Shown here piece after piece: positions 42,501-59,464 of a stretch of 64,000 bases of DNA (position 1 is the stretch's first letter; each line of letters opens with the position of its first letter). The translations under genes and the position numbers were made by a program. The DNA comes from Escherichia phage 172-1: sequence record NC_028903.1, one strand, 5' to 3'. Under the pieces are notes generated by a model. It saw nothing but the letters and a program-made list of their open reading frames with translations. It did no database searches and was not told the DNA's origin.

Positions 42501-42510
<10 letters not shown>
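41977..42510 (-). CDS. hypothetical protein (possible DUF3310-like)
   Basis: 177 aa; KYAYRHKDKNKAQDLLKVVHYAL resembles a recurrent phage motif; weak. Confidence 0.3.
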
Positions 42511-43794
<1,284 letters not shown>

Positions 43795-44087: not shown

Positions 44088-44834
44088 TTAGAATGGGCTA
44101 TCGTTGTCGTCTTCATAAGTAGAAGCAGGTTCTTTATCAATCGTAGGGATTGAAGGAGTAGCTTCTTTCTGTTCTGTTTCAGAAGCACGAGTAATTTCAC
44201 GACCAGCCAGAGGCATGTTCTTAGCGTCATTAGCTTGAGTAAGCAGGTTGCGCTGGAACGGGAACATCAGTTGATAGGATGCTACGTTCTCATCGGTTTC
44301 TGCATACGGTTCGAAGAATACCAGAGGACTGCGAGCTTCACCAACTGCTGCACGATATTTGGTTGGGATTGGAGAAATGGTTTTGATGGAGTTTTTAACT
44401 TCACCAGCTTTATTAGTGTAAGAGTTAACCAGAATGTTAACAGGCTGACCTAACAGCACATCCTTAAACCAAGACAGATCACCTTTCAGTGCTTGAATGC
44501 TTGGGTCAATCATCTTGCAGAGATCAAGGATACCAGAGTTCTTAGCTCGTGGGTTTACATCATAGCTCTTGAACTGGCAAGCAGGACGTGGTTCTAATGC
44601 CTTACCATCGGAATCTTTACCAGTAGCATCAACACCAATCAGCTCGAAAGCCAAATCCATACGGAAAGCTGGATTCTTAGGAGTTACTGCTTTGGTCTTC
44701 GGGTCAATCCAAGGGTCACGATTGTGAACACCCAAACCTACTACACGAACAATACGTGCTTCGTACTCACCATCAGGGATGACGTCGTAGTTGGATTTAC
44801 GGGAAGAAGTTGCGATAGTTGGAATCATAGACAT
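44088..44834 (-). CDS. T7 gp2.5-like single-stranded DNA-binding protein
   Basis: 248 aa; acidic C-terminal tail ending YEDDNDSPF (terminal Phe as in gp2.5). Confidence 0.55.
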   Translation of the reverse strand: MSMIPTIATSSRKSNYDVIPDGEYEARIVRVVGLGVHNRDPWIDPKTKAVTPKNPAFRMDLAFELIGVDATGKDSDGKALEPRPACQFKSYDVNPRAKNSGILDLCKMIDPSIQALKGDLSWFKDVLLGQPVNILVNSYTNKAGEVKNSIKTISPIPTKYRAAVGEARSPLVFFEPYAETDENVASYQLMFPFQRNLLTQANDAKNMPLAGREITRASETEQKEATPSIPTIDKEPASTYEDDNDSPF

Positions 44835-44893: not shown

Positions 44894-44902
44894 TATACAT
44901 TA
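44894..44902 (-). promoter_or_regulatory. phage promoter core TAATGTATA (leftward, upstream of SSB)
   Basis: Read on minus strand ~60 nt upstream of ATG 44834. Confidence 0.45.
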
Positions 44903-45380: not shown

Positions 45381-45881
45381 TTAAATAACGAGATCTTCTT
45401 TTCTTCTTTCATCGAAAACCTTCCTAATCTCTTGCAGAGAAACAGCTTTATAATCAATTTGCTCCATTGATGTACAGAAATATCTCCAATCATCAATTAC
45501 ATGGTTATGTGTATGAGCATAAATATTAAACTTCCCTCTCATTTCATCAGAGTGAATAGGGATATGAGTTACCCAAAACTCTTTATATTTAAAATCACCA
45601 GAGATTCTACGAAAGACTTTCATCATATCAGGGAGAAGTTCTAACCTATCATGATTCCCTAAGACCAGATGCTTCTCTCCTTTTACTTCAGCGATAATAT
45701 CAAGGGCATACTTTTCAAATACCCAATCACCAGTAAAAAAGATTTTATCACGTTTGGTTACGTGGTCAAAAGCAGCTAGAATTGCTTTGTCATGTTCTTC
45801 GATGTTTTTAAATTGCTTACGAAAACTACAGATGTTTCGATGACCTAAGTGACCATCTCCTGCAAAATAAACTTCAGCCAT
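45381..45881 (-). CDS. calcineurin-like metallophosphoesterase
   Basis: 166 aa; GDGHLGH, GDWV, GNHD and HTH metallophosphatase motifs. Confidence 0.65.
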   Translation of the reverse strand: MAEVYFAGDGHLGHRNICSFRKQFKNIEEHDKAILAAFDHVTKRDKIFFTGDWVFEKYALDIIAEVKGEKHLVLGNHDRLELLPDMMKVFRRISGDFKYKEFWVTHIPIHSDEMRGKFNIYAHTHNHVIDDWRYFCTSMEQIDYKAVSLQEIRKVFDERRKEDLVI

Positions 45882-45890
45882 AAAGACCTC

Positions 45891-46373
45891 TTAGATAGTT
45901 AATTTGTGATCTTCCTCCGCTCTGTTTCTAACAGAGACGGCTTCCTCTAGGGTTGAGAAAGTTCCTAGGTATTTAGTTTTACCCTTAATGTGGATATTGG
46001 CTATGTACTTCCCTCTTGAATTGAGGTATACACCCTTAGCCCCTGATGTGTTGTTAGAGTTCAAACCCTTGTTCCAAGAATTATTCTCGTTGTTAACTTC
46101 TCTAAGGTTGCCTATGGAATCATTGGAAGGGTTTCGATCAATGTGATCTATTTGATCTTTAGGTAAAACGCCATTAGCAAAATACCAAATGATGTGGTAT
46201 CTGTAAATGGATCTTCCTTTCACTCGGATAAGTACTCTTCCATCCTTTTTTGAAGTTCCTGCCTCATCGCCCCGCCTGCATTTTGTTCCGTTGTGAATTC
46301 TCCAGAACACTTTTCCAGATGATAAATCACAAACAAAGAACTCATCCAGAAGATCTTCTATCATATCATGCAA
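45891..46373 (-). CDS. HNH homing endonuclease with AP2-like DNA-binding domain
   Basis: 160 aa; DHIDRNPSNDSIGNLREV HNH core and GVYLNSRGKYIANIHIKGKTKYLGTF AP2-like segment. Confidence 0.6.
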   Translation of the reverse strand: MHDMIEDLLDEFFVCDLSSGKVFWRIHNGTKCRRGDEAGTSKKDGRVLIRVKGRSIYRYHIIWYFANGVLPKDQIDHIDRNPSNDSIGNLREVNNENNSWNKGLNSNNTSGAKGVYLNSRGKYIANIHIKGKTKYLGTFSTLEEAVSVRNRAEEDHKLTI

Positions 46374-46874
46374 CCATCACATACGAAATCCCCGCTCAGA
46401 GATTCTTGTAACAAACGACTTTGTTCATCGGAGACTAATTGATTAACAACTTTCTGTAACTCCAGCAGTTGATCAAAATCTATATATCCCCCTTCTTCAA
46501 GGACATTGGTTTCAATTCCCCATAAAGGTGATGGCATGTTTCCACTTGCTTTAAAAATCATTATATCTCCTTAGCTCCAAGATTTAGCTTTTACTTCAAC
46601 GTAGGTTTTAACCTCACCTTTCAGTACTTCCTGAGAAGCATTTGCACTTTCTTCAGAGGTGTGCACAACGGTGATCTCTTTCTTTCCAATCTTATAAGTG
46701 TGAACCCAAATCATTCCTCTTCCTCGTATTCCCAATTTCTTTCATAATATCCAGAGTTGTAGTTTAGGGCGCATTTCTCAGCCTCTTCTATGTCATCGGT
46801 ATTTAGGATATTAACCCATCCACCAACTTCATCAAAACCTTCATCTACTTCATTAAACCATACACTGTACTTTT

Positions 46875-47267
46875 TCATCGAATCACCAGAGGCTCTTCAG
46901 AGTACACAGGAGCGGCTATTTCTACAGGAGGTGCTGCCCTAAGGTCGTTGAGTCTTACGCCCTTCAGCATCCCATCTAGGTGGTCCTTTTTGGGGATTCC
47001 AACAGGGAAGTCGTCAATCCAGATATCTACAAAGAAACCTAGTTGTCGACATACATCATCCTTCTGGACACCATTGCAAAAGATGATAGGAATTTGCAAA
47101 CACTCTGCATCAATCTTAATGTCGTGATTATCATATCCATTAGGCTCTGCAAAGCGATAAGTTACAAAACGTACATCATAACCCTTCGCTTGCATTAATG
47201 TCACCACAGAGCGCCACAGCTCCTTATCTGAGGTGTAAGTATCATCATAATCTAAACCAATATTCAT
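46875..47267 (-). CDS. HAD-superfamily phosphatase (nucleotidase-like)
   Basis: 130 aa; N-terminal IGLDYDDT (DxDxT) and WIDDFP motifs. Confidence 0.5.
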   Translation of the reverse strand: MNIGLDYDDTYTSDKELWRSVVTLMQAKGYDVRFVTYRFAEPNGYDNHDIKIDAECLQIPIIFCNGVQKDDVCRQLGFFVDIWIDDFPVGIPKKDHLDGMLKGVRLNDLRAAPPVEIAAPVYSEEPLVIR

Positions 47268-47287
47268 TTCTAAATCCTTTAGACAAG

Positions 47288-47310
47288 AAAAGCCGCCCTA
47301 AGGCAGCTTC
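47288..47310 (-). terminator. rho-independent terminator-like hairpin
   Basis: GCUGCC / GGCGGC stem (one G-U) followed by U-rich tail on minus transcript. Confidence 0.4.
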
Positions 47311-47500
47311 TTATTTAACTATTCACTTTAGCTTCAAGAGTTTCATTTTCAATACTCAAGTCAATCACTACACCAGTAAGCTCAACAACTGCTTGGCGAA
47401 GGGCATCTTTACCCATAGAGTGTACTTGAGATAAGAAGAAAGCTTTACCTTCTTCAGTGGACAGGGTTTCTTTTAATTCAGAAGCAGTCATTGATATTCC

Positions 47501-47695
47501 TTATGTTATGTTATAAATTCGCATGATTGTACCGCCATTGGCTTCAATAGCAGCAACCATTTGGTTTCGTTCTTCATCCGTGTAAACTAACACACTTCTA
47601 AACTCACCCGTTGCATCAGTATAAAGGATGTTGTATTTCGGAGGTGGCTTACGGTAGATACCTTCCATCATTCTTTCTCCTCTCGTTCTTTCCAC
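47501..47695 (-). CDS. hypothetical protein
   Basis: 64 aa ORF. Confidence 0.3.
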   Translation of the reverse strand: MERTRGERMMEGIYRKPPPKYNILYTDATGEFRSVLVYTDEERNQMVAAIEANGGTIMRIYNIT

Positions 47696-47851
47696 AGTTC
47701 AGCAAGTTCTAAATAAAACTCAGCTTCATCAGGACGTCCTTGTTCATTACAGATGGCGCTCTGACGATAACACCAATCCGATGGCATCTCTTCCACTTCA
47801 ATCTCCTTGTTACGAACCAATCAATAAGAATAGTTCATTCGTCTTATTTAT

Positions 47852-48043
47852 TCACTCTACCAACGCAGGCACTTCTATCCTTTTAACTGTGAATGTCTTG
47901 TTTGGAAACTTTCGAACTAACTCTGCTGCTTTGGTTATTGCTAAGTTCTCTGTCTCAAAGATACACAGTTGACCATTTAATGCTACAAGAGTGGAGCCAC
48001 CACTGAAGATGGCCCAAGATTCATAATAACCTTTAACACTCAT
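47852..48043 (-). CDS. hypothetical protein
   Basis: 63 aa ORF immediately downstream of DNA polymerase. Confidence 0.3.
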   Translation of the reverse strand: MSVKGYYESWAIFSGGSTLVALNGQLCIFETENLAITKAAELVRKFPNKTFTVKRIEVPALVE

Positions 48044-48051
48044 AATTTACC

Positions 48052-49896
48052 TTAGTGCGTATGCATCCAGTTGAGTCCAATCTGACAATCAGATGCCAGA
48101 GGACATTCCATGTTCAAATACTCACCAGCCTTCTTAACACAAAGCTCGGTGTGCTCTTTGAGTTTCTGTACATCATTACGATTAACTGAGAACTGGCCCT
48201 CATCATGCATATCAATTACCTTAGCACAACGAACTCCATCCTTCTCAATCCACTTGTTAAGGAACATCATAGCATATTTCATAACAACAGCACCAGCACA
48301 TTGCAGGAGAGTGTTAAGTGCTTTATGAACCATAACCTTACCAGTGGCATCTCGTCTCATTGTAATCTTACGACCATCAACACCAATCAAGTACCCTTGA
48401 GCTGCTTTCTCTGTCATACGATCAATGAGGATTGCAATACATGGGTTCTCTGCCAAGAAACGTGCTCGCATCACTGAACCTTCATCAGCCCCACCACCTA
48501 CAATTGAACCAAGCTTAGCATCACCAGCACCATAGTTGAATGCGTAGATAAACGTCTTAGCGTTGTCACGAGTAGGAAGACCAGCAAGTCTCTGGTTGTG
48601 GGAGTGGATATCACCTTCAAGGAGAATATCACGATACATAATAGCAGAAGCTAAACCACGTTCTGCCAGAGCTTTCTTAGCTGGATTATTCTCTTCTATT
48701 GCTTCAGCAAGCATATCCCTACACTCTTTAATGAGGTAGTGTGCGAGCATACGCAATTCTAATCCAGAACCATCATACCCTAAGAATACTTCTTTACCAG
48801 CGGGTATGTAATATTTGTAAGCACCTACAGGTTTGTCTTTCTTCCCCGGCTTACCTTTCTCATAAATTACGTTAGTACCTTTTCGTATATAACAACCATC
48901 AGGAACAACGTTAGTAATAACGAAAGGACGAGAGTGATCATCATCTGAGTTATAGTCAGACTCAAACAAACCGCGACACTCATGACCAAACAAACCACGG
49001 GAGGGAATATTAACCACGATACGATGTTTGAATCGAAAAGTCGGAGTAGCGCAGCTGTTAGCTTCTGCCGAAAGTTTACCATCTTCGCGTTCCTTTGCTA
49101 TAAGTCCACTGATAAGACCTAGCCTGTGAGCCGCTACAACGCGTCTCTTAAGCAAACTTCCGACACTCCCTAGCTCACCCCCTAACCCTTCTTCAAGAGT
49201 CTCCTCGAGGTTTGTAGGAGCTGTAGGCCACTTGTTTGAGGTAGCTAGTGCTATCTTAATCTCATCAAAAGTGATAGGTCTACGTCGGTTAGGATTTAAA
49301 CCTAAACCAAAAACATAAGCCTTCATGTAGTTCTTAGTTTTAAACCTAAAGTGCTTCTCTAAGAACTTTCTGATATCAGCGTCAACCATCTCGGCTGTCT
49401 GCTTCTGTTTAGAATTACCTCGCATCCAAGCTGAATACCATGCTTGGTATGTTCCATACTTTCGCATATCTTTCTTGATTTCAAAAGTATTCCAAGGTTT
49501 CTTTGATACGTTAAACTCTGGAGGAAGAAAACCCTCATCCATAAGGGCTTCTTTAACTCGTGCATCTTTCGATGGGTCAAAGTCCACGTATTCAACACAG
49601 GTGAATGCTCCACCAATGTCCTCTCTCTTAAGTCCAACTCTATCACAATAGGCTTGAGGCCACTTCTGTAAAGCTCCAGACTTCTTAAATGGCTTCATAT
49701 AAGTAGAGCCATCTAATCTCATCTTAGGTAAGAGAGGAATTAATTCTTTGTCAATATTAACAATAATCTCTTTAAGGAGGTGAACATACCACCGAGCATT
49801 TCTTTGGTTGAAACTCACTCCGTGCTTCGCTTGCTTAGAGATTATATCAGCGACAGTCATCTCTGTCAAAAATGGGAGAGCGTCCGGGTTGCTCAC
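48052..49896 (-). CDS. family A DNA polymerase, polymerase domain only
   Basis: 614 aa; motif A DGSGLELRMLAHY, motif B RDNAKTFIYAFNYGAG, motif C HDE; no exonuclease motifs in N-terminus. Confidence 0.85.
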   Translation of the reverse strand: MSNPDALPFLTEMTVADIISKQAKHGVSFNQRNARWYVHLLKEIIVNIDKELIPLLPKMRLDGSTYMKPFKKSGALQKWPQAYCDRVGLKREDIGGAFTCVEYVDFDPSKDARVKEALMDEGFLPPEFNVSKKPWNTFEIKKDMRKYGTYQAWYSAWMRGNSKQKQTAEMVDADIRKFLEKHFRFKTKNYMKAYVFGLGLNPNRRRPITFDEIKIALATSNKWPTAPTNLEETLEEGLGGELGSVGSLLKRRVVAAHRLGLISGLIAKEREDGKLSAEANSCATPTFRFKHRIVVNIPSRGLFGHECRGLFESDYNSDDDHSRPFVITNVVPDGCYIRKGTNVIYEKGKPGKKDKPVGAYKYYIPAGKEVFLGYDGSGLELRMLAHYLIKECRDMLAEAIEENNPAKKALAERGLASAIMYRDILLEGDIHSHNQRLAGLPTRDNAKTFIYAFNYGAGDAKLGSIVGGGADEGSVMRARFLAENPCIAILIDRMTEKAAQGYLIGVDGRKITMRRDATGKVMVHKALNTLLQCAGAVVMKYAMMFLNKWIEKDGVRCAKVIDMHDEGQFSVNRNDVQKLKEHTELCVKKAGEYLNMECPLASDCQIGLNWMHTH

Positions 49897-49912
49897 TTTA
49901 TACTCCTTTAAA

Positions 49913-50335
49913 TTATTGGTAAATCAAATCCGTAAATGCTTGATTGTCTTCTATCACATCTAACACGGTAGCTTCATAACTGTAAGCCCTAACCGCCCCG
50001 TTAACAACTATCCGAGGAGTAGGTGGAGGTGGTGCATGGTTAGCCCTAGCTTCACGAGGTTGCTCTCGTACTAAATGAGCCACAACCCTTTGGTTAGCGA
50101 CTTCTTCTCTTTCTCGAATAGCTCTCTGAATGTAAGCTAACTTCATACCCCAAACTTCTTCAAACTCTTGAGGGTGTTTATCGCTGATAACTACATACTG
50201 ACGTTCAGGAATACCAGAGCGAATCTCTGACAAAAGCTCATGGAACAAATCAAGTTCATGTTCAGTGAGATTCATTTCGATATCATCCCACTTGAGAACT
50301 AGGAATCTGTTTTGGTGTCTAGCTGGTAATGGCAT
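49913..50335 (-). CDS. hypothetical protein
   Basis: 140 aa. Confidence 0.4.
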   Translation of the reverse strand: MPLPARHQNRFLVLKWDDIEMNLTEHELDLFHELLSEIRSGIPERQYVVISDKHPQEFEEVWGMKLAYIQRAIREREEVANQRVVAHLVREQPREARANHAPPPPTPRIVVNGAVRAYSYEATVLDVIEDNQAFTDLIYQ

Positions 50336-50498
50336 TCTACTCCACCTCTACTCTAACGTAAGTTCTCTCGCCAACATCATCTTTCCAGACCCATGCCTTG
50401 GCATCTTCTTCAGACTTAAAAGCTTTCACAACGCTGTATCCACCTTCCCATTCATCACCGAACCAGCGCTGTCCTACGTAAACATATTCTTTCATTAT

Positions 50499-50774
50499 TT
50501 AACCTTTTGGGAATGGCATTAAAGATTCCATAGCAGATTTAATTTCGCTATTGATTCGAGCATCTCGATAAGAGATAAACTTACCTTTGCTATCTCGTAA
50601 CATCACATGGGTTCTAGCTGTTACGTGGGGAAGTAATGTAATACTAGTTGGGATAGTGTCAATCCCTACAGAAAATTTGTCAATAGTCTTGCTTTCACTT
50701 AACAGATAAGACCAAGTTTGCTTCGGATGGTTAGGGTATGTGTCTCGAATTTGAACCATAGCTAACTTATTCAT
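50499..50774 (-). CDS. small protein, GKFISY/PFPKG paralog family (member 2)
   Basis: 91 aa; shares ...GKFISY...PFPKG C-terminus with adjacent gene. Confidence 0.45.
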   Translation of the reverse strand: MNKLAMVQIRDTYPNHPKQTWSYLLSESKTIDKFSVGIDTIPTSITLLPHVTARTHVMLRDSKGKFISYRDARINSEIKSAMESLMPFPKG

Positions 50775-50775
50775 A

Positions 50776-51027
50776 TTAAACTCCTTTAGGGAATGGGATG
50801 AGGTTTTCTACTGCAACACGGAACTCTTTCTCTACGTTTTTATTCTTATAAGAAATGAATTTACCATCAGCCCCACGGAGGATTACGTTAGTACGAGCTG
50901 TTTTTGGGTTATGACCAATCTGGTTTGCAATAATATTAGCAATGCCGTGGTTATTGGTAAATTTCCATTTAACCATACGATTGTTAGACATTACATCAAT
51001 GATATTTACAGATTTTACAATAGACAT
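50776..51027 (-). CDS. small protein, GKFISY/PFPKG paralog family (member 1)
   Basis: 83 aa; tandem paralog. Confidence 0.45.
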   Translation of the reverse strand: MSIVKSVNIIDVMSNNRMVKWKFTNNHGIANIIANQIGHNPKTARTNVILRGADGKFISYKNKNVEKEFRVAVENLIPFPKGV

Positions 51028-51061
51028 ATTTATTACCTAAGAAGTTTAATTTGGTTTATAT

Positions 51062-51090
51062 AAAAGAAAAGGCCACCCATTTGGGTAGCC
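51062..51090 (-). terminator. rho-independent terminator
   Basis: GGCUACCC / GGGUGGCC stem followed by UUUUCUUUU on minus transcript. Confidence 0.5.
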
Positions 51091-51095
51091 TCATA

Positions 51096-51419
51096 TTACG
51101 ATGAGCTTAAAGCTCCTTTTCGCTTAGCAGCACCAGCTGCTTTTCCAGCTCGATTACCACTTTTGCCGCCGTTTGAACGGTTTGAGCTGACTGATTCAAC
51201 ACGTAAGTTGCTTGACGCATTAGAGCCTCCAGACTTGACAGCTCGTTTGTGTCCAACATCTTTACCTCTGACAGCAGCTTTTCCATCGCGCTTTTCAACG
51301 ATGCGACGTGCACGGTGGCGCTGAGCATCTCCGCTCTTGCTCCCAACGCCTGTCTCACCACGGGCAATTGCGGTACGTCTTTCTTGTGCATAATCTCTCT
51401 TTCCTACATGATCTGCCAT
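51096..51419 (-). CDS. basic low-complexity protein (possibly nucleic-acid binding)
   Basis: 107 aa, R/K/G/A-rich; own promoter and AAGGAG RBS. Confidence 0.4.
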   Translation of the reverse strand: MADHVGKRDYAQERRTAIARGETGVGSKSGDAQRHRARRIVEKRDGKAAVRGKDVGHKRAVKSGGSNASSNLRVESVSSNRSNGGKSGNRAGKAAGAAKRKGALSSS

Positions 51420-51455
51420 TTAAAACTCCTTAATATATCAGTGTACACTAAGGAG

Positions 51456-51466
51456 TATACATTATA
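51456..51466 (-). promoter_or_regulatory. phage promoter core TATAATGTATA (leftward)
   Basis: 37 nt upstream of ATG 51419. Confidence 0.5.
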
Positions 51467-51475
51467 AGTTGCTGT

Positions 51476-52213
51476 TTAAGCTTTCTTTTCCATTGCTTTA
51501 ACAATAGCTTTACAGAAACCAGAACGAACAATGTCATCTGATTCGCCGTCTACAATCTCAGCGAACTCATACAGATCATGTTCATCAATAAAGTTAGTAG
51601 CCCAAGTAAGACCACTCTCACGACCACGCATATCATGCTGGTTAGTGTCACCCATGCAGAACAATTGAGAGGTTTCTCCCAATCGAGTCATGATTGAGAA
51701 GGCTTCATCTTTAGTGGTGTTCTGGAACTCATCTACGATAACAATAGCATCGTTGAAAGAACGACCACGGAGATACTCCAGAGGTACGAACTCAATATTA
51801 CTGTTACCGAGCTGGCATTCATAGAACCCTTTACCATATCGCTGAGTAATAACATCAATGATAGGCATCAAATATGGTTCAAACTTCTCACGCATCCCTC
51901 CCGGAAGCAACCCAAGAGAATTACCCATGCCGACCGAAGGGCGACTCAGGATAATCTTCTGAATCTTACCACTCTTCAGTGCATCGATAACCGTGGAAGT
52001 GATTACAAAGGTCTTACCACAGCCCGCAGGAGCGTCTGTGAACACAACTTGTTTAGTCTTGATAGCATTGAGCAGTTCAGACTGGAACTGGTTCTGAGGG
52101 ACTACAGGCTTTGCTAAAACCACCTCTTCAAACTCGCGCTTACCCTTACGAGTGACAAGTACTTCCCGACGAAGGTCTTTCCGTGATTCTTTCCGTGATT
52201 GACGACGACTCAT
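51476..52213 (-). CDS. phoH: PhoH-like ATPase
   Basis: 245 aa; Walker A PAGCGKTF, IVDEFQN, and GDTNQ motifs. Confidence 0.8.
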   Translation of the reverse strand: MSRRQSRKESRKDLRREVLVTRKGKREFEEVVLAKPVVPQNQFQSELLNAIKTKQVVFTDAPAGCGKTFVITSTVIDALKSGKIQKIILSRPSVGMGNSLGLLPGGMREKFEPYLMPIIDVITQRYGKGFYECQLGNSNIEFVPLEYLRGRSFNDAIVIVDEFQNTTKDEAFSIMTRLGETSQLFCMGDTNQHDMRGRESGLTWATNFIDEHDLYEFAEIVDGESDDIVRSGFCKAIVKAMEKKA

Positions 52214-52422
52214 TTACGCTCTCCAATTTCTTCGTAATGACATTCAGTAGTTAAACAATCTTTACAGATTGCTGTATAAACCCTGACGTTAGTAAATCGT
52301 TTGTTCTTCCCTTTGGTTGGAGAGCCTTTGGCAAGCTCTCTGATAACCTTGTTACTTAAATGAAGGTTTGTCCCTTCACATCTAGAGCACTTCACCACAA
52401 TGTCCATTCGGTAAGAGACCAC
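52210..52422 (-). CDS. small zinc-finger protein
   Basis: 70 aa; CSRC...CKDC...CH cluster. Confidence 0.35.
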   Translation of the reverse strand: MVSYRMDIVVKCSRCEGTNLHLSNKVIRELAKGSPTKGKNKRFTNVRVYTAICKDCLTTECHYEEIGERK

Positions 52423-52588
52423 AGAGAGTCACCTATGTGGGCATTGTCATTCCTGATGAGGTCTTTGATTTTATCAACATCAGTTAAGTGAGTCACATTC
52501 AAAATATCCTCAACATCTGGGGCATATTTAAATATGGCAACAATACTGTTGTGATCTTCAGCATATCTTTCTAGAACATAAACTACGC

Positions 52589-52912
52589 TCATGCGAAGTT
52601 AACCTCTTTATGAAGTCTGTAAACAGCTGTCGCCATACAAGCAACAGCTTCGTTATGTGGGAGATGCATCCCTGTAGAACCATCCCAATCTTTGAACTCA
52701 TTGTCAAAGACTCCGGTAGGCTCTGGATACAAGGCTTGCAACTCAACCAAATCGTTAGCAACTTGTTGCCATTTATCATCAGACCAGATAGGGTCATCCA
52801 ACCAGTAATACAAATAGGAATGGATGATCAATTGCCTTCTGTGCCGATTGATTACTTCAGCGGGACTTATCTCACTTCCATTTGAAGTCCTAAATGTATT
52901 ACTGTCAATCAT
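52589..52912 (-). CDS. small protein resembling NAD-dependent ligase domain Ia
   Basis: 107 aa; HSYLYYWLDDPIWSDDKW...LQALYPEP resembles the LigA N-terminal motif; weak. Confidence 0.3.
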   Translation of the reverse strand: MIDSNTFRTSNGSEISPAEVINRHRRQLIIHSYLYYWLDDPIWSDDKWQQVANDLVELQALYPEPTGVFDNEFKDWDGSTGMHLPHNEAVACMATAVYRLHKEVNFA

Positions 52913-53157
52913 TTCACAACCTTAAATTTGAATGTTGTTGGGTGATAATAATGCAACCTGTTAATGGTGTGCTTTGTTTCAAGATATATCCTACAAGAGT
53001 GACACATCACATGATTCAGACCAGTTACAGGATTAGGTTTAAAGTTGGCGATAGGCTTCTCTTTCTTACAGAAGCTACAGACTTTCTTTTCCATCTTTTC
53101 TCCAGTGGTCAACGAACTGCTGAAACACTTTACGGTCAAATGTGAAATTACGAGCAA
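52909..53157 (-). CDS. zinc-ribbon protein
   Basis: 82 aa; CSFC...CHSC pairs. Confidence 0.35.
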   Translation of the reverse strand: MLVISHLTVKCFSSSLTTGEKMEKKVCSFCKKEKPIANFKPNPVTGLNHVMCHSCRIYLETKHTINRLHYYHPTTFKFKVVK

Positions 53158-53454
53158 TTCCGCATTCTCTAAAAGTGGCAGGCATATAATCTACATCACC
53201 TTCAGATGTATGACCATAGACTTGAATAAGTTTCTTAATCTTATCCTTCTCTCTTCGAGGAAGCATTCTAAATGCCTCCTGAATATCTGTAATATGTTTT
53301 ATCTTCATCAGAAATTCCTGCTAATCCTCTGAGTTGTGGGAACAGCAATATTCACATACTCCACAACAAGGGCAAATTTCTACACTTGGGTCATATGCAT
53401 CATCAACTGTCATCCCACACTTGGTGCAGAACACATCATCATCTTCTTCCAATA

Positions 53455-54111
53455 TTAATTCTCCAAAGTTTTCTTCAGAGCTGCCCACGAGATTGGGTAG
53501 AGTTTAGCCATCTCTTCATCCAGAGATTGAGCAAACACTCGAACTTCATACTGAGCATGGGAGGATAGTCGCTGACGACACAACTCAAACCAGCCATACA
53601 AAGAACCAGTCCACACCCACTCAGTGATCATTCCCTGAGGAAGAACAAATCGGGCTTGTTCTGGTGCAACGAACTCAATCAACTTGTCATATGCTGCTAG
53701 AGAAGCTTCATATGCATCGTTAATCAACATTAATGCTTCAGCTCGCTCTCCATTGATGAGTTGAACCCCTGAACCTGCATGGAGGTCCGAAGGTCTCGCA
53801 AAAATCTCTTTAGGGATGAAGACTTCAACTGCTCCGTCTTTATACCTCCGGGACATTTCGTTCCACGAAAACCCAATTTGGTGCTTGCCCAACTGTCTCG
53901 CAATTGCGATAGGTGCTTTGCATCGGAAACTGACTTGTGGGTGTCGGAATGGAGTAACATGCTTCTCTCTTGCGAGGAAGTTGATGAGACGTTCATCACG
54001 TTCATTTAAATCACCTTCACGGGTTACGCCAAAGGAAACTCGAGCTGCGTTTACTACGCTACGATCACTTCCCATAGCTTCGATTAATGTTGCTTGTAAT
54101 TGTTCATTCAT
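53455..54111 (-). CDS. thyX: flavin-dependent thymidylate synthase ThyX homolog (variant active-site motif)
   Basis: 218 aa; recalled ThyX-like core (VVNAARVSFG, HVTPFRH, KAPIAIARQ, SHAQ); RHR-x7-S motif replaced by KHQ-x8-S. Confidence 0.7.
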   Translation of the reverse strand: MNEQLQATLIEAMGSDRSVVNAARVSFGVTREGDLNERDERLINFLAREKHVTPFRHPQVSFRCKAPIAIARQLGKHQIGFSWNEMSRRYKDGAVEVFIPKEIFARPSDLHAGSGVQLINGERAEALMLINDAYEASLAAYDKLIEFVAPEQARFVLPQGMITEWVWTGSLYGWFELCRQRLSSHAQYEVRVFAQSLDEEMAKLYPISWAALKKTLEN

Positions 54112-54126
54112 CCGTGAATTTCCTTA

Positions 54127-54336
54127 TTAATATTCTTTTACATAATAAACCACTAAGGTTCCCATCTCTGACAATGTTGATTTATGTAAGCTTACTTTAC
54201 TATAAATCTTTGGGGCCATCTTAAGAGCCTTCTTAAAACGGCGAGCATCTTTACGAGTAGCAAAGTGCTCTGTAACAGGTATAGCCGGGTCTTGGTAGAG
54301 GTAATATACCACCGTCCAATATTTTTTCATAATCAA
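54127..54336 (-). CDS. small protein, TRxxAR/YY paralog family (member 4)
   Basis: 69 aa; ATRKDARRFKKALK core and C-terminal YY-type ending. Confidence 0.45.
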   Translation of the reverse strand: MIMKKYWTVVYYLYQDPAIPVTEHFATRKDARRFKKALKMAPKIYSKVSLHKSTLSEMGTLVVYYVKEY

Positions 54337-54605
54337 ACACCTAGGGCAGTAGTTAAGAATGCTTTCAGGTTTGCTTCGGTCTGCATACCAGAGAGACTAT
54401 AGTGTGCACCACTATTACGGTCAGGTACAACGAAAGCAGGGATGCTTCTTACACCATACTTAACAGCTTGTTCACGACCATCACCTTCAAGGATGTTAAT
54501 CTCTTCTACTTCTACATCGAACTCCTTAACAACCTTCTCAAAGGTAGGAGCCATTGCTTTACATGGAGCACACTGATCACTATAAAACTTAATCACTTTA
54601 GACAT
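54333..54605 (-). CDS. thioredoxin/glutaredoxin-like protein
   Basis: Start at ATG 54603-54605 (MSKVIKFYSDQCAPCK...); CxxC active site. Confidence 0.55.
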   Translation of the reverse strand: MSKVIKFYSDQCAPCKAMAPTFEKVVKEFDVEVEEINILEGDGREQAVKYGVRSIPAFVVPDRNSGAHYSLSGMQTEANLKAFLTTALGV

Positions 54606-54795
54606 TCTATTCCTTGTTAATAAACAGGTTGATATGACGTTGGGTAGCAGGAACAACAATAAAAGATTTATACTGACCTTTTGCTAAGTCATGAGCAATC
54701 TTCTTTGTCTGACCAAGACCCATCACACAGCCACTAACAATAATGGCGTGTGCTTGCAACTCTTCAGGGAGTTTTAGTTTCATTCTTCAGGTTCC

Positions 54796-54981
54796 TTACA
54801 GCATAGCAAGAATGATAATAAGAGGTAATGTTATAGCGAAATTAATAAGAACAGCGCTGCCTAGCTTGATAGCTTTAACATCCTCTTCTGATGGGTTTTC
54901 TTTAATTGCTAAATTTCGAGCTTTATATATAACAGTACCAATTATTAACGACCACACGGCCCACACAATCAGTGAAATCAT
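54796..54981 (-). CDS. small two-TM membrane protein
   Basis: 61 aa; two hydrophobic helices. Confidence 0.4.
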   Translation of the reverse strand: MISLIVWAVWSLIIGTVIYKARNLAIKENPSEEDVKAIKLGSAVLINFAITLPLIIILAML

Positions 54982-54990
54982 ATCAAACCC

Positions 54991-55170
54991 TTATGCAGTC
55001 AGGAGGTGAAGCAGGAATGGGATAACAACAGCTACGACAACCATGATGGTTGATGCTGTTTGAATCTCACCTTTCTTGTCAGGAGTTTCTTCAATAAGCT
55101 TGCCAGAAGCCCAATAGATACCACCACCAATAAAGACAGCCCAAATACCCCATACGATTGCTGATAACAT
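54991..55170 (-). CDS. small two-TM membrane protein (paralog of 54796..54981; not in ORF track)
   Basis: 59 aa ORF found by hand (MLSAIVWGIWAVFIGGGIYWASGKLIEETPDKK...); same architecture as neighbour. Confidence 0.35.
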   Translation of the reverse strand: MLSAIVWGIWAVFIGGGIYWASGKLIEETPDKKGEIQTASTIMVVVAVVIPFLLHLLTA

Positions 55171-55231
55171 ATATCTATATCCTTATAAATAAGTTCGCCC
55201 CACCTCGGGTTAGGAGACAGGGCGGAGGTTT

Positions 55232-55795
55232 TTAGTAAGACACATCGCCACTTGAGTGGGACATGTTGCTCTTGACGAAGTAGCAATACTTGCCAAGACC
55301 TTCATTAATTTCTTGAAGCATACTCTGATCAACTGGATAAGTGGCTAAATCACCATCAAACTCATCCATCTTCTCAATAATACACATCAAGGTCATGCAC
55401 ATATCAGAGAGCATACCGTCCATATCTAGGTCAGCATTACCCTCTGAGAACCAAGCATGGGAGAGATAATTGGCTGCTGTGGCGTCCACTTTAACACAGT
55501 GGTAACGCATACGTTCAGCAATACGATCTCCTACTTGTCGTGCGTAATCTTCCAGCTCATCAAACATACCATGAACACCCTGAAATCCTGCACCAGAGAC
55601 GTTCCAATGGTAGTTTTTAGCTTTGATATGCAAGAGTTCCATGTTAGCTTGTAAGCAGCTCAGGATGTGTTCTAGGCTGTTTCCACTAATCATACCCTGC
55701 ATTGTTTCAAGGCGAGAGATTGAAAGCTCGGACCGGTCTAACATATTGTATTCGACACGACCAATATCAGGTAAATCAAAGACATTCTTATGCAT
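55232..55795 (-). CDS. dps: Dps-like ferritin (DNA-binding ferritin-like protein)
   Basis: Start at ATG 55793-55795 with GGAGAT RBS; NYHWNVSGAGFQGVH (H-x11-H) and GDRIAE (D-x3-E) match recalled Dps ferroxidase-centre spacing. Confidence 0.6.
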   Translation of the reverse strand: MHKNVFDLPDIGRVEYNMLDRSELSISRLETMQGMISGNSLEHILSCLQANMELLHIKAKNYHWNVSGAGFQGVHGMFDELEDYARQVGDRIAERMRYHCVKVDATAANYLSHAWFSEGNADLDMDGMLSDMCMTLMCIIEKMDEFDGDLATYPVDQSMLQEINEGLGKYCYFVKSNMSHSSGDVSY

Positions 55796-56117
55796 TTGGG
55801 TTATCTCCATCAAGTTCAACTGAATTAGCAACGTTACGTTCGATGTTTGCCATCACTTGCTGCGTTATGACAATACAGTTCTGTGGGTCTACTGACTTAG
55901 AACGCCCCATTTCAGGGTCATACACCTTAACTCGCTTAGCAGTTGAACCTGTAACCTGAAGAACCTTCAACAGATATCCCTGATTACCAATAGACCAAGC
56001 AACAACATCACGATTCTTGATAAAGCGACCAAGCATATCACGATGATAAAACTGTTGCATCACCTTGGATTTTGTAATCTCTTCAGTGGGCGGGGCCACT
56101 TTACTCAAATCTAACAT
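55788..56117 (-). CDS. hypothetical protein
   Basis: 109 aa; preceded by promoter motif. Confidence 0.45.
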   Translation of the reverse strand: MLDLSKVAPPTEEITKSKVMQQFYHRDMLGRFIKNRDVVAWSIGNQGYLLKVLQVTGSTAKRVKVYDPEMGRSKSVDPQNCIVITQQVMANIERNVANSVELDGDNPNA

Positions 56118-56155
56118 AACTCTCTCCTGTAAAAATACAAATTCTTATTGTACTC

Positions 56156-56188
56156 TATATACATTTGAGAGTTACCATATCTACTACC
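56156..56188 (-). promoter_or_regulatory. phage promoter (GGTAGTAG-N14-AAATGTATATA, leftward)
   Basis: Same upstream octamer and spacing as 44944..44976; 39 nt upstream of ATG 56117. Confidence 0.5.
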
Positions 56189-56190
56189 AA

Positions 56191-56400
56191 TCAGTAGTAA
56201 ACATTCCGAGATAGCATACAAGTACTTTCTGAGAATTCAACCCAACGGTGTATGCTAACATGCTCAACCGTACCGACCAGAGCTTTCATATTCTTTTTAG
56301 CAATACGAGCCTCTTTGCGAGTGTTAAACAGTTTGATATTATCTTTTCCCAAGTGTTGCTCGTGATTCCAAACAACACGAATAGCCCACATCTTTTTCAT
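56191..56400 (-). CDS. small protein, TRxxAR/YY paralog family (member 3)
   Basis: 69 aa; NTRKEARIAKKNMK core, ends VYY. Confidence 0.45.
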   Translation of the reverse strand: MKKMWAIRVVWNHEQHLGKDNIKLFNTRKEARIAKKNMKALVGTVEHVSIHRWVEFSESTCMLSRNVYY

Positions 56401-56609
56401 CAGTAGTGTACCTTTCCGCTGATATAAACACGACCAGAGGAATACTCTCTGGCCTTATGAATACTGATGCTCTTGATCATATCTATATTAAACATGGACT
56501 TTTTAAAATCTCGAGCTTGTTGGCGAGTAGGTAGTGCAGTCATAGTCATACCGCCTGATGCCCACTTAATCTTTGCTAACCAAAACTGTCTCATAGTGAT
56601 TGGTCTCAT
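56400..56609 (-). CDS. small protein, TRxxAR/YY paralog family (member 2)
   Basis: 69 aa; PTRQQARDFKKSMF core, ends VHY. Confidence 0.45.
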   Translation of the reverse strand: MRPITMRQFWLAKIKWASGGMTMTALPTRQQARDFKKSMFNIDMIKSISIHKAREYSSGRVYISGKVHY

Positions 56610-56806
56610 TAATAATAAACCTTGCTGTTGGCAAAAAGAGCACCTTCGTTATTCACAATAGCTTTTCCTATTGTAACCTTATTGAGTCTAAAAGTAGACT
56701 TGTATTGGTTTTTGACCCTACGGGCGTGTTCTCGAGTATTAACAAAATCTACAGCTACTAACTCTCCAGTCGTGTTATCATGTACACGAACAATCCACTT
56801 TTTCAT
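56609..56806 (-). CDS. small protein, TRxxAR/YY paralog family (member 1)
   Basis: 65 aa; NTREHARRVKNQYK core, ends VYY. Confidence 0.45.
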   Translation of the reverse strand: MKKWIVRVHDNTTGELVAVDFVNTREHARRVKNQYKSTFRLNKVTIGKAIVNNEGALFANSKVYY

Positions 56807-57009
56807 TTTACTAAACCCTTCATAAAGTTATAAAGATCATTAGAGGCTTTACCCCATTCAAGGTGCTTCTTATCCATATAGCTCTTACATGCTTCTTTAC
56901 TACTTTCGACGCATATATCAAATTGATGACATGCTCGACCAAATGTCATAGCTTTTAATTGAACCTCGGTAGTCAAACCTTTCAGTTCTTGGAACTCTTC
57001 TTCAGTCAT
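56803..57009 (-). CDS. hypothetical protein
   Basis: 68 aa. Confidence 0.35.
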   Translation of the reverse strand: MTEEEFQELKGLTTEVQLKAMTFGRACHQFDICVESSKEACKSYMDKKHLEWGKASNDLYNFMKGLVK

Positions 57010-57543
57010 TTACACACCCTTAGATGCAACAACACCTTCAGAGTTATTATAACGACCCTTCACTGCATAGGAATGTTCCCCTGCATGAGAGTGCTCAAAC
57101 ATCACCATCTGACCAACACGCATACCAGCACGAACTCGTAAGCTATGATGCTTGGTTACGTTGTGGAATTCAAACGTCAGCTTACTGCTATTAAATCCAG
57201 CATCAGCCCATCCAGCATGTAGGTGGTTCAAACCACAACGAGCCATAGATGAACGAAGAACAAACAGGCTTGAGATATTATCTGGAAGATTAAACTCCTC
57301 CATGGAGTGAGCCAAGAAGAACTGACCCGGAGTGATAACCAAACCCTCTTCAGGAATCTTTACTTCCTTCCACTGAAGATTTTCTTTCGCATCAATATCA
57401 ACGATGCCATCAGCCTGTTCTTCAACAAGGATAGTATCACCAATACGGATATCCACACTAGCAGCGTTAACATACTTATGCTCCGCATCCAGATAGCCAT
57501 TGTCAATTACATCGTGCAGTTCAACACTTCCTAGTAAACTCAT
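57010..57543 (-). CDS. dcd: dCTP deaminase (dUTPase-fold)
   Basis: 177 aa; ASVDIRIG, RSSMARCGL, AGWADAGF and YNNSEGVVASK align with the recalled E. coli Dcd sequence. Confidence 0.7.
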   Translation of the reverse strand: MSLLGSVELHDVIDNGYLDAEHKYVNAASVDIRIGDTILVEEQADGIVDIDAKENLQWKEVKIPEEGLVITPGQFFLAHSMEEFNLPDNISSLFVLRSSMARCGLNHLHAGWADAGFNSSKLTFEFHNVTKHHSLRVRAGMRVGQMVMFEHSHAGEHSYAVKGRYNNSEGVVASKGV

Positions 57544-57552
57544 TCTTATTCC

Positions 57553-58908
57553 TTAGTTATTTGTTTCCATGTCAAAAGAGATTCCACGACCCGCTTCATC
57601 GGCAAACCGAACTGTACGGGTTTGAGGCTGCAATACTTCAGGGTTATCAGCAACAAAGCGATCAGCGAGACTGCGGCTGACGGTCTCAGCTAATTCACCA
57701 TGAGAAGGGATATTAAGATCGGCGAGATTATCAACCACATCTTGGGCCACGTCTTCATCAGTCCATACAGCCCTAACAGGTGCGTTGAAACTCTGACCAG
57801 AGAACTGGTGACGGCTAACAGTCAAACCATTTGATTGACCATTAGAACGTCTAGACAACCACTGCTCAAATGAATCGCCAGTAACACCAAGAGCTTCTTC
57901 AAAAGATGTTCTACGAGTAGAGCTTAGATTTCGTGCTTCGTTTGCTCGACGTCTTGCAGGGGCTACAAACACCCCTTCAACTGCATTGTGCCGATTAGGT
58001 TCATCTTCTCGACCAAGGAGATCTCCTCCTGTATTAGTTGTTAAGTTTGTCAACCCTTCAGACCAATATGCACGAATCTGGCTAGAGCCATGAACACTTG
58101 ACATTAACTGAATCTCTTCGTAAGGTATTCCAAAGAATAGACTCATGTCTCGGTTAACACAGTATTGAGCACTTGTTGTATCCTCAATAAGAGAAACCTG
58201 ACCTAATCCATTAACCAGATGACTAACTGGCTGAGGTGTAGGAAGGTATCGAGTTTGGGCCATATATTGATATGCAACAGATGGAGCTGAGAATCTTAAC
58301 ACTTGTGAATTAGGCCACTTTTTGTGAACGTATCTGATTTCACGACTAGAAACAACCACAGGGCAAGGAGCGGTCATAGCTAAATATCCATGAGGAGTCA
58401 TGAATAGGTTGTCAAGAGTCATCGCACCACGGCACATCATAGGAAAATTATCCAATACCTCTTCAATAGAAGTAGGATAATTAAACATGAATTGAATGCG
58501 GGTTCCATTCCACTGAAACTCAATAATATCAGTGAATGTTAATTGAGAACCCCCAGCATATGATTCGTTTGTAGCTTCAGCAAGAAGGGATGCATACTCG
58601 ATATCTTGTGATTCAAGCCACTCTTTCACATTGCTTTCAATCTCTCGTCCAAGAGCTTGCCAATGATCAACTGTAGTGAAAGTATTTTGAGTCCCTGGCG
58701 TCTGTCCTCTGACAACGAAGATATCAATATCGTGAGGTGCTATGTTATTAAGCACGGCATCACGAACAGCCCCACCAGTAATGATAGGGCAAATGCCGTC
58801 TGGAATCAAGTTGTTGTTAATCAACTGTTCAATGAAGTGACGACCAACAGTGATATCAGGTTGTTGAGCAACCTTATCTTCAATTCGGTTAATCGGGATA
58901 ACAATCAT
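57553..58908 (-). CDS. nucleotidyltransferase, tRNA-NT/poly(A) polymerase head-domain family
   Basis: Start at ATG 58906-58908; ITGGAVRDAVLNNIAPHDIDIFV = GGxVRD...DxD pol-beta signature; C-terminal ~300 aa unrecognised. Confidence 0.55.
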   Translation of the reverse strand: MIVIPINRIEDKVAQQPDITVGRHFIEQLINNNLIPDGICPIITGGAVRDAVLNNIAPHDIDIFVVRGQTPGTQNTFTTVDHWQALGREIESNVKEWLESQDIEYASLLAEATNESYAGGSQLTFTDIIEFQWNGTRIQFMFNYPTSIEEVLDNFPMMCRGAMTLDNLFMTPHGYLAMTAPCPVVVSSREIRYVHKKWPNSQVLRFSAPSVAYQYMAQTRYLPTPQPVSHLVNGLGQVSLIEDTTSAQYCVNRDMSLFFGIPYEEIQLMSSVHGSSQIRAYWSEGLTNLTTNTGGDLLGREDEPNRHNAVEGVFVAPARRRANEARNLSSTRRTSFEEALGVTGDSFEQWLSRRSNGQSNGLTVSRHQFSGQSFNAPVRAVWTDEDVAQDVVDNLADLNIPSHGELAETVSRSLADRFVADNPEVLQPQTRTVRFADEAGRGISFDMETNN

Positions 58909-58909
58909 T

Positions 58910-59464
58910 TTACATTTTCCAATATAATGAAGGTGGGTCGTAAGGGTCAAATCCCGTGAGTTCACACAAGTATTTATAAACCTTAACGGTTAAGTTAACG
59001 TCCTGTTCACAGTAAGTAAACATATCTTCAGTGAAAGCATCCCATGCTTCCTCTTGCTCACCGTAGTCTCCTTTAAGTTCCTCTAAGAACTCACCCCATT
59101 GCTTCAAACCATGACCTCTTGGGCCATGTCTAGGGTCACCTTTCGGATACTCAGGACTGTCACCAATACGGTCAGGTTTAAGATATCGACTAAGACACAA
59201 GGTGTCGAAGACGTTAAAACGATAGTCGATCAGATTGGGATACATCTTCTTCAGAGCACAAAGGTCGAAGTCAATAATATTATGACCTACGAGCACATCA
59301 GCTTCTGTAAGTTTACGAATCCCATCTTCAATTTGGTGAGGCCGATAGCCCCACCTTTCACCAGTTTCAACATCGAAGATGTAAATACACCACACTTTAG
59401 TTATGTCATCGTACAGTGCATTACTCTCGATATCAAATGCAAACACTTTCTTTTTCTTTACCAC
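58910..59464 (-). CDS. DnaQ-like 3'-5' exonuclease (stand-alone proofreading domain)
   Basis: 184 aa; Exo I FDIES, Exo II HNIIDFD, Exo III YCEQDV motifs. Confidence 0.7.

Follow-up and report, generated by a model that had tools for sequence, protein, structure and literature searches.

Dcd, ThyX and neighbouring genes of Escherichia phage 172-1: a probable thymidylate-supply route inside a conserved Kuravirus replication region

In Escherichia coli (Dcd-Dut-ThyA), phage T4 (Cd-Td) and halovirus HF2 (Dcd-ThyX), a deoxycytidine nucleotide is deaminated and deoxyuridine monophosphate (dUMP) is then methylated at C5. The same kinds of step are encoded by phages of the Kuravirus cluster (phiEco32, NJ01, SU10, Bas90), which carry a split DNA polymerase, a deoxycytidine triphosphate (dCTP) deaminase (Dcd), a nucleotidyltransferase, the flavin-dependent thymidylate synthase ThyX, thioredoxin, a Dps-like protein, PhoH and a phosphoesterase. 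Here we consider the corresponding region of Escherichia phage 172-1 (sequence record NC_028903.1), the interval 45381-57543 of a stretch of 64,000 nucleotides that was analysed as a whole and is called the window in what follows. A model that had read the letters alone (the original prediction) saw in this interval a large nucleotide-metabolism gene set compatible with a modified pyrimidine in virion DNA. We think it rather likely that the region provides an ordinary Dcd-ThyX thymidylate supply inside the Kuravirus replication block, with unrelated auxiliary genes around it and canonical DNA, the evidence being the protein families, their conserved catalytic residues, synteny with relatives and the avoidance of restriction sites.

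In Kuravirus (phiEco32-like podophages, Gordonclarkvirinae) this interval is a conserved region of middle genes for replication and nucleotide supply. It matched 119 phage records, the best being Escherichia phage NJ01 (97% identity, 97% query coverage), and its gene order is identical to that of the annotated relatives Bas90 SkaterBoy and NJ01; Kuravirus relatives differ from this phage only in homing-endonuclease insertions and in their content of small open reading frames (ORFs). The whole arrangement is already annotated and is conserved in more than 100 Kuravirus records. Every gene from ~40000 to 64000 lies on the minus strand. The original prediction had named eight gene types within the interval (dCTP deaminase, a variant ThyX, a thioredoxin-like protein, HAD phosphatase, calcineurin-like phosphoesterase, PhoH, Dps-like ferritin and a nucleotidyltransferase); all eight are present and on the minus strand, but the nucleotidyltransferase gene begins 10 nt outside, which leaves seven of them inside among ~34 minus-strand ORFs. 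The other ORFs encode a DNA polymerase subunit, an HNH homing endonuclease, a stand-alone Nlig-Ia domain and ~25 small proteins without assigned function. The genes which would make up the supply route are these:

57010-57543, minus strand: dCTP deaminase Dcd, 177 aa (PF22769, E = 3.5e-34; TIGR02274 equivalog, 107.7 bits against a cut-off of 92.8)
53455-54111, minus strand: flavin-dependent thymidylate synthase ThyX, 218 aa, K-H-Q variant (PF02511, E = 8.8e-44; TIGR02170, 128.8 bits against a cut-off of 87.9)
54333-54605, minus strand: thioredoxin-fold protein with a CAPC active site, ~90 aa from Met19 of the ORF (PF00085, E = 2e-13; phrog_22, 'thioredoxin domain')
41977-42510, minus strand, outside the interval: DUF3310 protein with a gp1.7-like kinase domain (PF11753, E = 4.5e-7)

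The solved structures nearest to Dcd are the dCTP deaminases 4xjc and 2qxx (~1e-14), the latter being the bifunctional dCTP deaminase-dUTPase of M. tuberculosis; 1xs1 (E. coli Dcd) is more distant (7e-8). In the alignments with 4xjc and 2qxx the catalytic segments RSSxxRxGL and ExxN (with its Glu) are retained, RSSMARCGL and FEFHN of the phage protein standing opposite RSSVGRLGL and LELFN. The product may be deoxyuridine triphosphate (dUTP), or dUMP if the enzyme is bifunctional like its closest solved relatives. Matches to Dcd occur in 208 phage records. The one in halovirus HF2 overlaps features annotated as dCTP deaminase and as ThyX, so dcd and thyX are adjacent there. Within Kuravirus the dcd allele is mosaic: the Dcd proteins of ES17 and SR02 are ~59% identical to that of the window, and the ES17 nucleotidyltransferase is 94% identical, a pattern suggestive of allele exchange at one fixed locus.

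Solved ThyX proteins align with the phage ThyX over its whole length (PDB 6j61, 7e-31; T. maritima ThyX, 4.5e-25). When the positions of T. maritima ThyX were mapped onto 121 aligned sequences (the window protein and its closest homologues, down to 54% identity), the dUMP contacts R74, Q75, E86, S88, R90, R147 and R174, plus H53, were invariant in all 121 (T. maritima numbering). In place of the canonical motif RHRxxxxxxxS the phage protein has K-H-Q...S (R78K, R80Q), and these two replacements, together with E58R, N163S and R165Y, are fixed in 120 of the 120 closest homologues. The RHR residues, together with a conserved Ser and Arg from a neighbouring subunit, hydrogen-bond the adenosine monophosphate phosphate, the ribityl-phosphate and the isoalloxazine of flavin adenine dinucleotide (review PMC6514825). 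ThyX matches occur in 1219 phage records; the listed members of the K-H-Q clade come from metagenomic contigs and from phages such as Kuravirus, Salmonella SeKF_80, Escherichia phage Ecp_YSF and a Staphylococcus phage. The 'variant ThyX' of the original prediction is borne out by these alignments, which indicate a real phage clade in which the flavin site appears remodelled and the nucleotide site unchanged.

What follows about metabolite flow, the part played by thioredoxin and the canonical bases of the DNA is inferred from these genes. Phage Dcd would deaminate dCTP to dUTP, or straight to dUMP if it is bifunctional, and where the product is dUTP a host dUTPase would yield dUMP. ThyX would then methylate dUMP to thymidine monophosphate (dTMP) with methylene-tetrahydrofolate and reduced flavin, and the gp1.7-like kinase domain (41977-42510), with host kinases, would take dTMP to thymidine triphosphate (dTTP). 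The net outcome would be a shift of deoxynucleotide out of the C pool and into the T pool, which would be useful in itself because a phage of 42% GC (42.0% in the window) replicates in a host of ~51% GC. Since the methylation is by ThyX rather than ThyA, dihydrofolate reductase (DHFR) would not be needed. Thioredoxin is probably the reductant of host ribonucleotide reductase, while PhoH, the Dps-like protein, Nlig-Ia, the capless HAD phosphatase, the metallophosphoesterase and the nucleotidyltransferase would be independent auxiliaries that share the early/middle block and not steps of base modification. The virion DNA would contain the four ordinary bases, and the restriction resistance reported for relatives would then come from something besides known covalent modification.

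The last step of this route is a possible one. Four PHROG families of 'nucleotide kinases' (phrog_236, phrog_4897, phrog_1689 and phrog_11324) are matched both by the DUF3310 protein and by T7 gp1.7; direct BLAST of T7 gp1.7 against the DUF3310 protein was not significant, so that the link consists of the shared PHROG families only. The thioredoxin-fold protein scores under the NCBIfam equivalog cut-offs. The ORFs scanned were the small ones of the interval and, in 1-10 kb and 40-64 kb, every minus-strand ORF of 100 aa or more, with the late structural ORFs excluded; neither these nor the Bas90 annotation contained a ribonucleotide reductase or a dUTPase.

The same scan returned no enzyme of a known modification pathway. 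Pfam, PHROG and NCBIfam gave no hit in the scanned ORFs to a hydroxymethylase, 5-HMUDK, aGPT-Pplase, glycosyltransferase, DpdA or methyltransferase; nor was there a ThyA-family Pfam hit, and tblastn with the thyA-like ORF of phage ViI reached a best E of 1.4. The ViI queries comprised the ThyA-like hydroxymethylase, the adjacent P-loop ORFs (the kinase ORF being assigned on its position next to thyA), dUTPase, dCMP deaminase and MazG, and for these ORFs of the ViI hydroxymethyluracil neighbourhood neither the window nor the rest of Bas90 (25 kb) gave a hit below E = 0.08. Families that would indicate T4-type cytosine modification (dCMP hydroxymethylase, dCTPase, glucosyltransferase) were likewise absent from the scanned ORFs. 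No Ugi-like protein or dUTPase inhibitor was recognised among the ~25 small ORFs, where small inhibitors are hard to see by sequence. As candidate dTMP/dTTP hydrolases for a deoxyuridine (dU) system, the HAD phosphatase and the metallophosphoesterase are present, with substrates not assigned.

The window is depleted in many palindromic restriction sites. CCWGG is seen 5 times against 72 expected and GATC 124 times against 295 (Markov expectation); CTGCAG (16 expected), GAGCTC (13), GGTACC (6), GCATGC (6) and RGGNCCY (31) are absent, and CCATGG occurs once against 8. A ratio of observed to expected of 0.2 or less was found for 9 of 51 palindromic hexamers as against 3 of 1887 non-palindromic ones (Fisher 6e-13). 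Strong depletion affects all eight GC-only hexamer palindromes, 14 of the 24 with two A/T positions, none of the 24 with four and none of the eight with six. In the control T7, whose DNA is unmodified, CCWGG occurs twice against 70 expected, with depletion of 17/24 two-A/T and 6/24 AT-rich hexamers, whereas in the control ViI, with hypermodified thymine, CCWGG (87 against 68) and GATC (223 against 190) exceed expectation. Palindrome depletion is what selection by type II enzymes leaves behind, and therefore at least the depleted sites are cleavable in this DNA. Because CCWGG, GATC and GC-rich palindromes are avoided in a T7-like manner, cytosine is probably unprotected and cytosine modification unlikely. 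The grading of avoidance by A/T content was also considered as a test for thymine modification and rejected as non-diagnostic, since ViI depletes 6/24 AT-rich hexamers and T5 only 2/24; it is kept for cytosine only.

A separate observation concerns the non-palindromic GACATC/GATGTC, which is missing from the 64-kb window (~29 expected, ~24 by the Markov model). It occurs 0 and 1 times against ~12 in two Bas90 stretches and 0 times against 13 in NJ01; T7 and ViI have at least the expected number and T5 slightly fewer. ACTGGG and GRGCYC are missing as well. Such gaps point to selection within this lineage, exerted by an enzyme of type IIS, IIG or III or by a nuclease that a phage encodes.

The remaining named genes, with Nlig-Ia, are the following:

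51476-52213, minus strand: PhoH-like ATPase (PF02562, E = 4.2e-56)
55232-55831, minus strand: Dps-like ferritin-fold protein (PF00210, E = 2.7e-7, partial match; PDB Dps, E = 3e-9, residues 63-188)
52589-52912, minus strand: stand-alone Nlig-Ia domain, the NAD+-binding domain Ia of LigA (PF22745, E = 2.7e-35, whole 107-aa protein)
46875-47267, minus strand: capless (C0-type) HAD-superfamily phosphatase, 130 aa (HAD motifs on a Rossmannoid fold)
45381-45881, minus strand: small metallophosphoesterase, 166 aa (PF00149, E = 1.8e-5, above cut-off; phrog_547, E = 1.3e-51)
57553-58908, minus strand, starting 10 nt beyond the interval: Pol-beta-type nucleotidyltransferase with a class-II CCA/PAP-like head motif

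PhoH also gives a weak match to the RNA helicase PhoH2 model. In the Dps-like protein the H..H..D..E ferroxidase positions align with PDB 4m35, although the Pfam match is partial and the NCBIfam score is 34 bits against a cut-off of 114. The Nlig-Ia protein, labelled 'DNA ligase' in relatives, is not a ligase, as the adenylation domain is absent; it may be a protein that binds NAD+ (nicotinamide adenine dinucleotide) or nicotinamide mononucleotide. The HAD protein has motifs I (DxDxT), II (T/S), III (K) and IV (DD) on its Rossmannoid fold, and its model matched the T4 Pnkp 3'-phosphatase about equally well as small-molecule phosphatases; capless HADs usually act on macromolecular ends. The translation of the metallophosphoesterase shows the motifs DxH / GD / GNHD / H / HxH, with a weak match to the ligase-associated PdeM.

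The nucleotidyltransferase is recognisable only by its GGxVRD...DxD head motif, with PolyA_pol (PF01743) at E = 0.003 and 18.2 bits against a Pfam gathering threshold of 23. Motif A aligns to that of 6ibp, and its residues G45, G46, R49, D50, D60 and D62 are invariant in 27 family members; the conserved core spans ~215 residues, with the further invariants Y117, Q139, P156, Y193 and K197. A profile search of 1.84e9 proteins yielded 31 representatives of the family, none of them a canonical CCA or poly(A) enzyme. Against PDB sequences a shallow alignment profile found no match, and a deeper one found only motif A of CCA-adding enzymes (6ibp; E = 0.0016, profile positions 37-112). Beyond motif A, the protein has neither an above-threshold family score nor recognisable neck and body domains, with motifs B-E, of class II CCA-adding enzymes and poly(A) polymerases. 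An AlphaFold2 model from 33 close homologues had a predicted local distance difference test score (pLDDT) of 32 and was discarded as unusable. The gene is present in 96 phage records, nearly all named as Escherichia or Shigella phages, and among 50,697 phage records it is confined to Gordonclarkvirinae; its conservation beside replication genes is shown in S3 Fig of PMC11990801.

Of the genes named above, only Dcd and ThyX clearly act on deoxynucleotide pools, and thioredoxin and the gp1.7-like kinase domain perhaps; PhoH, the Dps-like protein, the HAD phosphatase, the metallophosphoesterase and the nucleotidyltransferase are without a demonstrated link to base modification. The control stretch of phage T5 encodes PhoH, thymidylate synthase, DHFR and three ribonucleotide reductase genes, which is more nucleotide genes than this phage has, and T5 DNA is unmodified. 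A rich nucleotide gene set is therefore not a signature of modified DNA, and the earlier claim that the set is more than dTTP supply needs does not hold.

Further upstream in the direction of transcription, the pair mentioned in the original prediction was confirmed on the minus strand:

61468-61887, minus strand: GGACT/AIG2-like cyclotransferase (PF06094, E = 2.8e-17)
62394-63590, minus strand: RimK-like ATP-grasp ligase (weak RimK and Dala_Dala_lig_C matches)

The pair matches phrog_2520 and phrog_2599 and forms the downstream edge of a ~10-kb cluster of amidoligase and glutamine amidotransferase (GATase) genes which extends past the window. Upstream in Bas90 are genes for GATase, amidoligase and COOH-NH2 ligase, and the cluster continues there with a 676-aa class II glutamine amidotransferase, two amidoligases and three hypothetical proteins. 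Virion preparations of SU10 are reported to contain peptides of the ATP-grasp, GATase, YtfP-like and nucleotidyltransferase proteins (PMC4281155). In viromes, genes for thymidine hypermodification are found together with those for amidoligases and amidotransferases (Lee et al. 2022, PMC8989533).

A number of points weigh against an ordinary thymidylate supply with canonical DNA. The remodelled flavin site of ThyX may alter what the enzyme does, and the nucleotidyltransferase, the HAD phosphatase and the metallophosphoesterase are without known substrates. AT-rich hexamer sites are not avoided (0/24, against 6/24 in T7), a pattern that thymine modification could give. Humolli et al. 2025 describe the Gordonclarkvirinae Bas86-93 of the BASEL collection as remarkably resistant to six restriction-modification (RM) systems of types I, II and III, and known anti-restriction proteins were not found in them; the table there lists 8 EcoKI, 6 EcoCFT_I, 26 EcoRI, 70 EcoRV, 108 EcoCFT_II and 121 EcoP1 sites for Bas90, and one replicate of the raw data has near-equal Bas90 titres on vector, EcoKI and EcoCFT_I. 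Scarcity of sites is ruled out as the cause, as EcoKI (10), EcoRI (13), EcoRV (29) and EcoP1 (104) sites occur in the window near their expected frequencies, and the window also has 29 HindIII, 43 DraI and 36 SspI sites; with sites at such counts, something must therefore protect the DNA in vivo. The resistance of these phages to restriction is genuine and has yet to be explained; a nucleoside analysis of any Kuravirus was not found in the searchable literature, and several other Kuravirus papers give no digestion data. The BASEL authors group N4 with Gordonclarkvirinae for potent genomic DNA protection, and the modification hypothesis, prompted by the RM resistance, is already in print (Humolli et al. 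2025), with a dU-DNA version also suggested in the BASEL paper. In favour of canonical DNA, the authors of PMC11997193 describe EcoRV fragment patterns for DNA of Kuravirus SR02, a phage which groups with NJ01, MN05 and MN03 and whose nucleotidyltransferase is among the homologues of the window protein, and the termini of phiEco32 were obtained via restriction profiling, primer walking and subcloning (PMC9965538).

The RM resistance of relatives, of types I, II and III and despite many sites, would be explained if Gordonclarkvirinae DNA carried an undescribed covalent modification, most plausibly one derived from thymine, which we nevertheless judge to be quite improbable. The K-H-Q ThyX would then not be a plain dTMP synthase but would, e.g., release a C5-methylene or hydroxymethyl product, and the lineage-specific nucleotidyltransferase and/or the amidoligase/ATP-grasp/GATase/GGACT cluster would finish the synthesis. 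The systematic alteration of flavin-binding residues across the phage clade, the position of the nucleotidyltransferase beside replication genes and its confinement to the subfamily, and the occurrence of amidoligases and amidotransferases near hypermodification genes in viromes (PMC8989533) all fit such a route; however, the virome partners of those amidoligases, 5-HMUDK and aGPT-Pplase, and a ThyA-type hydroxymethylase were not found in the scanned ORFs, and ThyX retains an unchanged dUMP site and a thyX equivalog score. Four- and six-A/T sites are left unavoided while GC-rich ones are avoided, as thymine modification might predict, but ViI itself avoids some AT-rich sites, so the pattern is not diagnostic, and the T-containing PstI, SacI, KpnI, SphI and NcoI sites are strongly avoided. 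The restriction fragment length polymorphism reported with EcoRV for SR02, and the restriction mapping and cloning of phiEco32 DNA, also speak against it. A substitution of dU for thymidine of the Bacillus phage PBS1 type, with Dcd flooding the pool with dUTP, can draw on a bona fide dCTP deaminase that adjoins replication genes, on the HAD phosphatase and metallophosphoesterase, which could in principle be dTMPases, and on the RM resistance of relatives. It is very improbable all the same, since the phage has a conserved ThyX, apparently functional by sequence, whose dUMP site is intact and which is expected to make dTMP, whereas dU-DNA phages remove thymidylate. Among the nearest solved Dcds is the bifunctional type that forms dUMP, with which dUTP would not accumulate; known dU phages have a very low GC content, unlike the 42% seen here; neither a Ugi-like protein nor an inhibitor of dUTPase was recognised, hard as these are to detect by sequence; and dU substitution gives merely partial protection from type II enzymes.

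A reading of another kind, compatible with the ordinary supply route and in our view unlikely rather than negligible, takes the HAD phosphatase, the metallophosphoesterase, the CCA-adding-like nucleotidyltransferase and PhoH as a nucleic-acid end-repair or counter-defence set, with a possible role in healing or rebuilding the 3' ends of tRNA or DNA that host nucleases have damaged. The weak PdeM match of the metallophosphoesterase, the weak PhoH2 RNA helicase match of PhoH and the fact that CCA-adding enzymes are the sole recognisable relatives of the nucleotidyltransferase would agree with this. The member genes, however, are non-adjacent and spread over different transcription units, without a ligase or kinase partner, and the alignment to 6ibp is limited to profile positions 37-112 with a sub-threshold Pfam PolyA_pol score. 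The suggestion of a modified pyrimidine has accordingly had a mixed fate: published RM resistance keeps the idea alive, while site avoidance argues against a protected cytosine, ThyX against dU, and the SR02 EcoRV patterns also count against a modified pyrimidine. The original gene inventory is essentially correct and describes a known, annotated feature, and the speculation about modification had already been published. Cytosine modification and dU-DNA are unlikely and the known thymidine-hypermodification pathways were not found, which narrows the remaining question to the mechanism of restriction resistance, and this the gene list alone does not answer. If modified DNA were to prove true, it would mean a new modification pathway and an explanation of the broad plating host range of these common therapeutic coliphages, with relevance to sequencing, cloning and phage engineering.

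The candidate promoters and the further genes of the block are as follows:

51456-51464, minus strand: candidate promoter, exact match to the phiEco32 gp36-sigma middle/late consensus TAATGTATA, upstream of 51096-51419 and the DNA polymerase gene
44894-44902, minus strand: candidate promoter, exact TAATGTATA match from the consensus scan
56158-56166, minus strand: candidate promoter, one-mismatch TAATGTATA copy from the consensus scan
48052-49896, minus strand: family A DNA polymerase, polymerase subunit (PF00476, E = 1.2e-22; PF01612, E = 1.1e-8; Bas90 annotation)
45891-46373, minus strand: HNH homing endonuclease, a mobile insertion (PF13392, E = 8e-10; Bas90 has no annotated coding sequence there)

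The consensus is taken from PMC8948821, and as its count in the window equals chance expectation, promoters were assigned by position, with only exact, well-placed matches used. Judged by the positions of these phage sigma promoter matches, the interval would span at least three transcription units rather than one operon.

The 3'-5' exonuclease of the split DNA polymerase is encoded at 58910-59464 (minus strand), ~9 kb from the polymerase gene, and Dcd, ThyX and other genes sit between the two; the split is a known trait of the group. Directly downstream of the promoter match at 51456-51464, the ORF at 51096-51419 (minus strand) encodes an extremely basic, low-complexity protein of 107 aa, rich in K, R, G and S (phrog_4590), which may be a DNA-binding protein. 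The promoter match at 44894-44902 is followed by a 248-aa protein of an uncharacterised PHROG family (44088-44834, minus strand) whose acidic C-terminal tail, ...DDNDSPF, resembles the C-termini of single-strand DNA-binding proteins. Among the small ORFs, four phrog_4939 paralogues of 65-69 aa (54127-54336, 56191-56400, 56400-56609 and 56609-56806, minus strand) share the motif TR(K/E)xARxxKK, three of them in tandem, and a tandem phrog_6814 pair lies at 50499-50774 and 50776-51027 (minus strand). The ORF at 42501-42893 (minus strand), flanked by the sigma factor gene and the kinase-like DUF3310 gene, encodes a protein with an SLOG/YspA-like (YAcAr) domain, called a 'GTP-binding domain' in relatives.

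Set beside the ThyA routes, this phage has ThyX in place of ThyA, in a form with K-H-Q plus three further flavin-contact changes, and no phage dUTPase was found in the scanned ORFs. With PBS1/PBS2 and phiR1-37, whose DNA contains dU, it shares a phage dCTP deaminase, and its Kuravirus relatives share their restriction resistance; it differs from them in having a thymidylate synthase and moderate GC, and in having no demonstrated dTMPase or inhibitor of uracil-DNA glycosylase or dUTPase. To the systems of ViI, M6, SP10 and PhiW-14, in which thymidine hypermodification derives from 5-hydroxymethyldeoxyuridine, this phage is linked by a nearby amidoligase/amidotransferase cluster, genes of a type found beside hypermodification genes in viromes; the enzymes that define such systems (ThyA-family dUMP hydroxymethylase, 5-HMUDK and aGPT-Pplase/AADT) were not found in the scanned ORFs of this phage, and its site avoidance departs from that of ViI at CCWGG and GATC. 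N4, like Gordonclarkvirinae, is stated to be resistant in vivo despite its sites, a likeness which is phenotypic only, with no homologous anti-restriction determinant known in any of these phages. The DNA of N4 is unmodified, and T5 is a second restriction-resistant phage.

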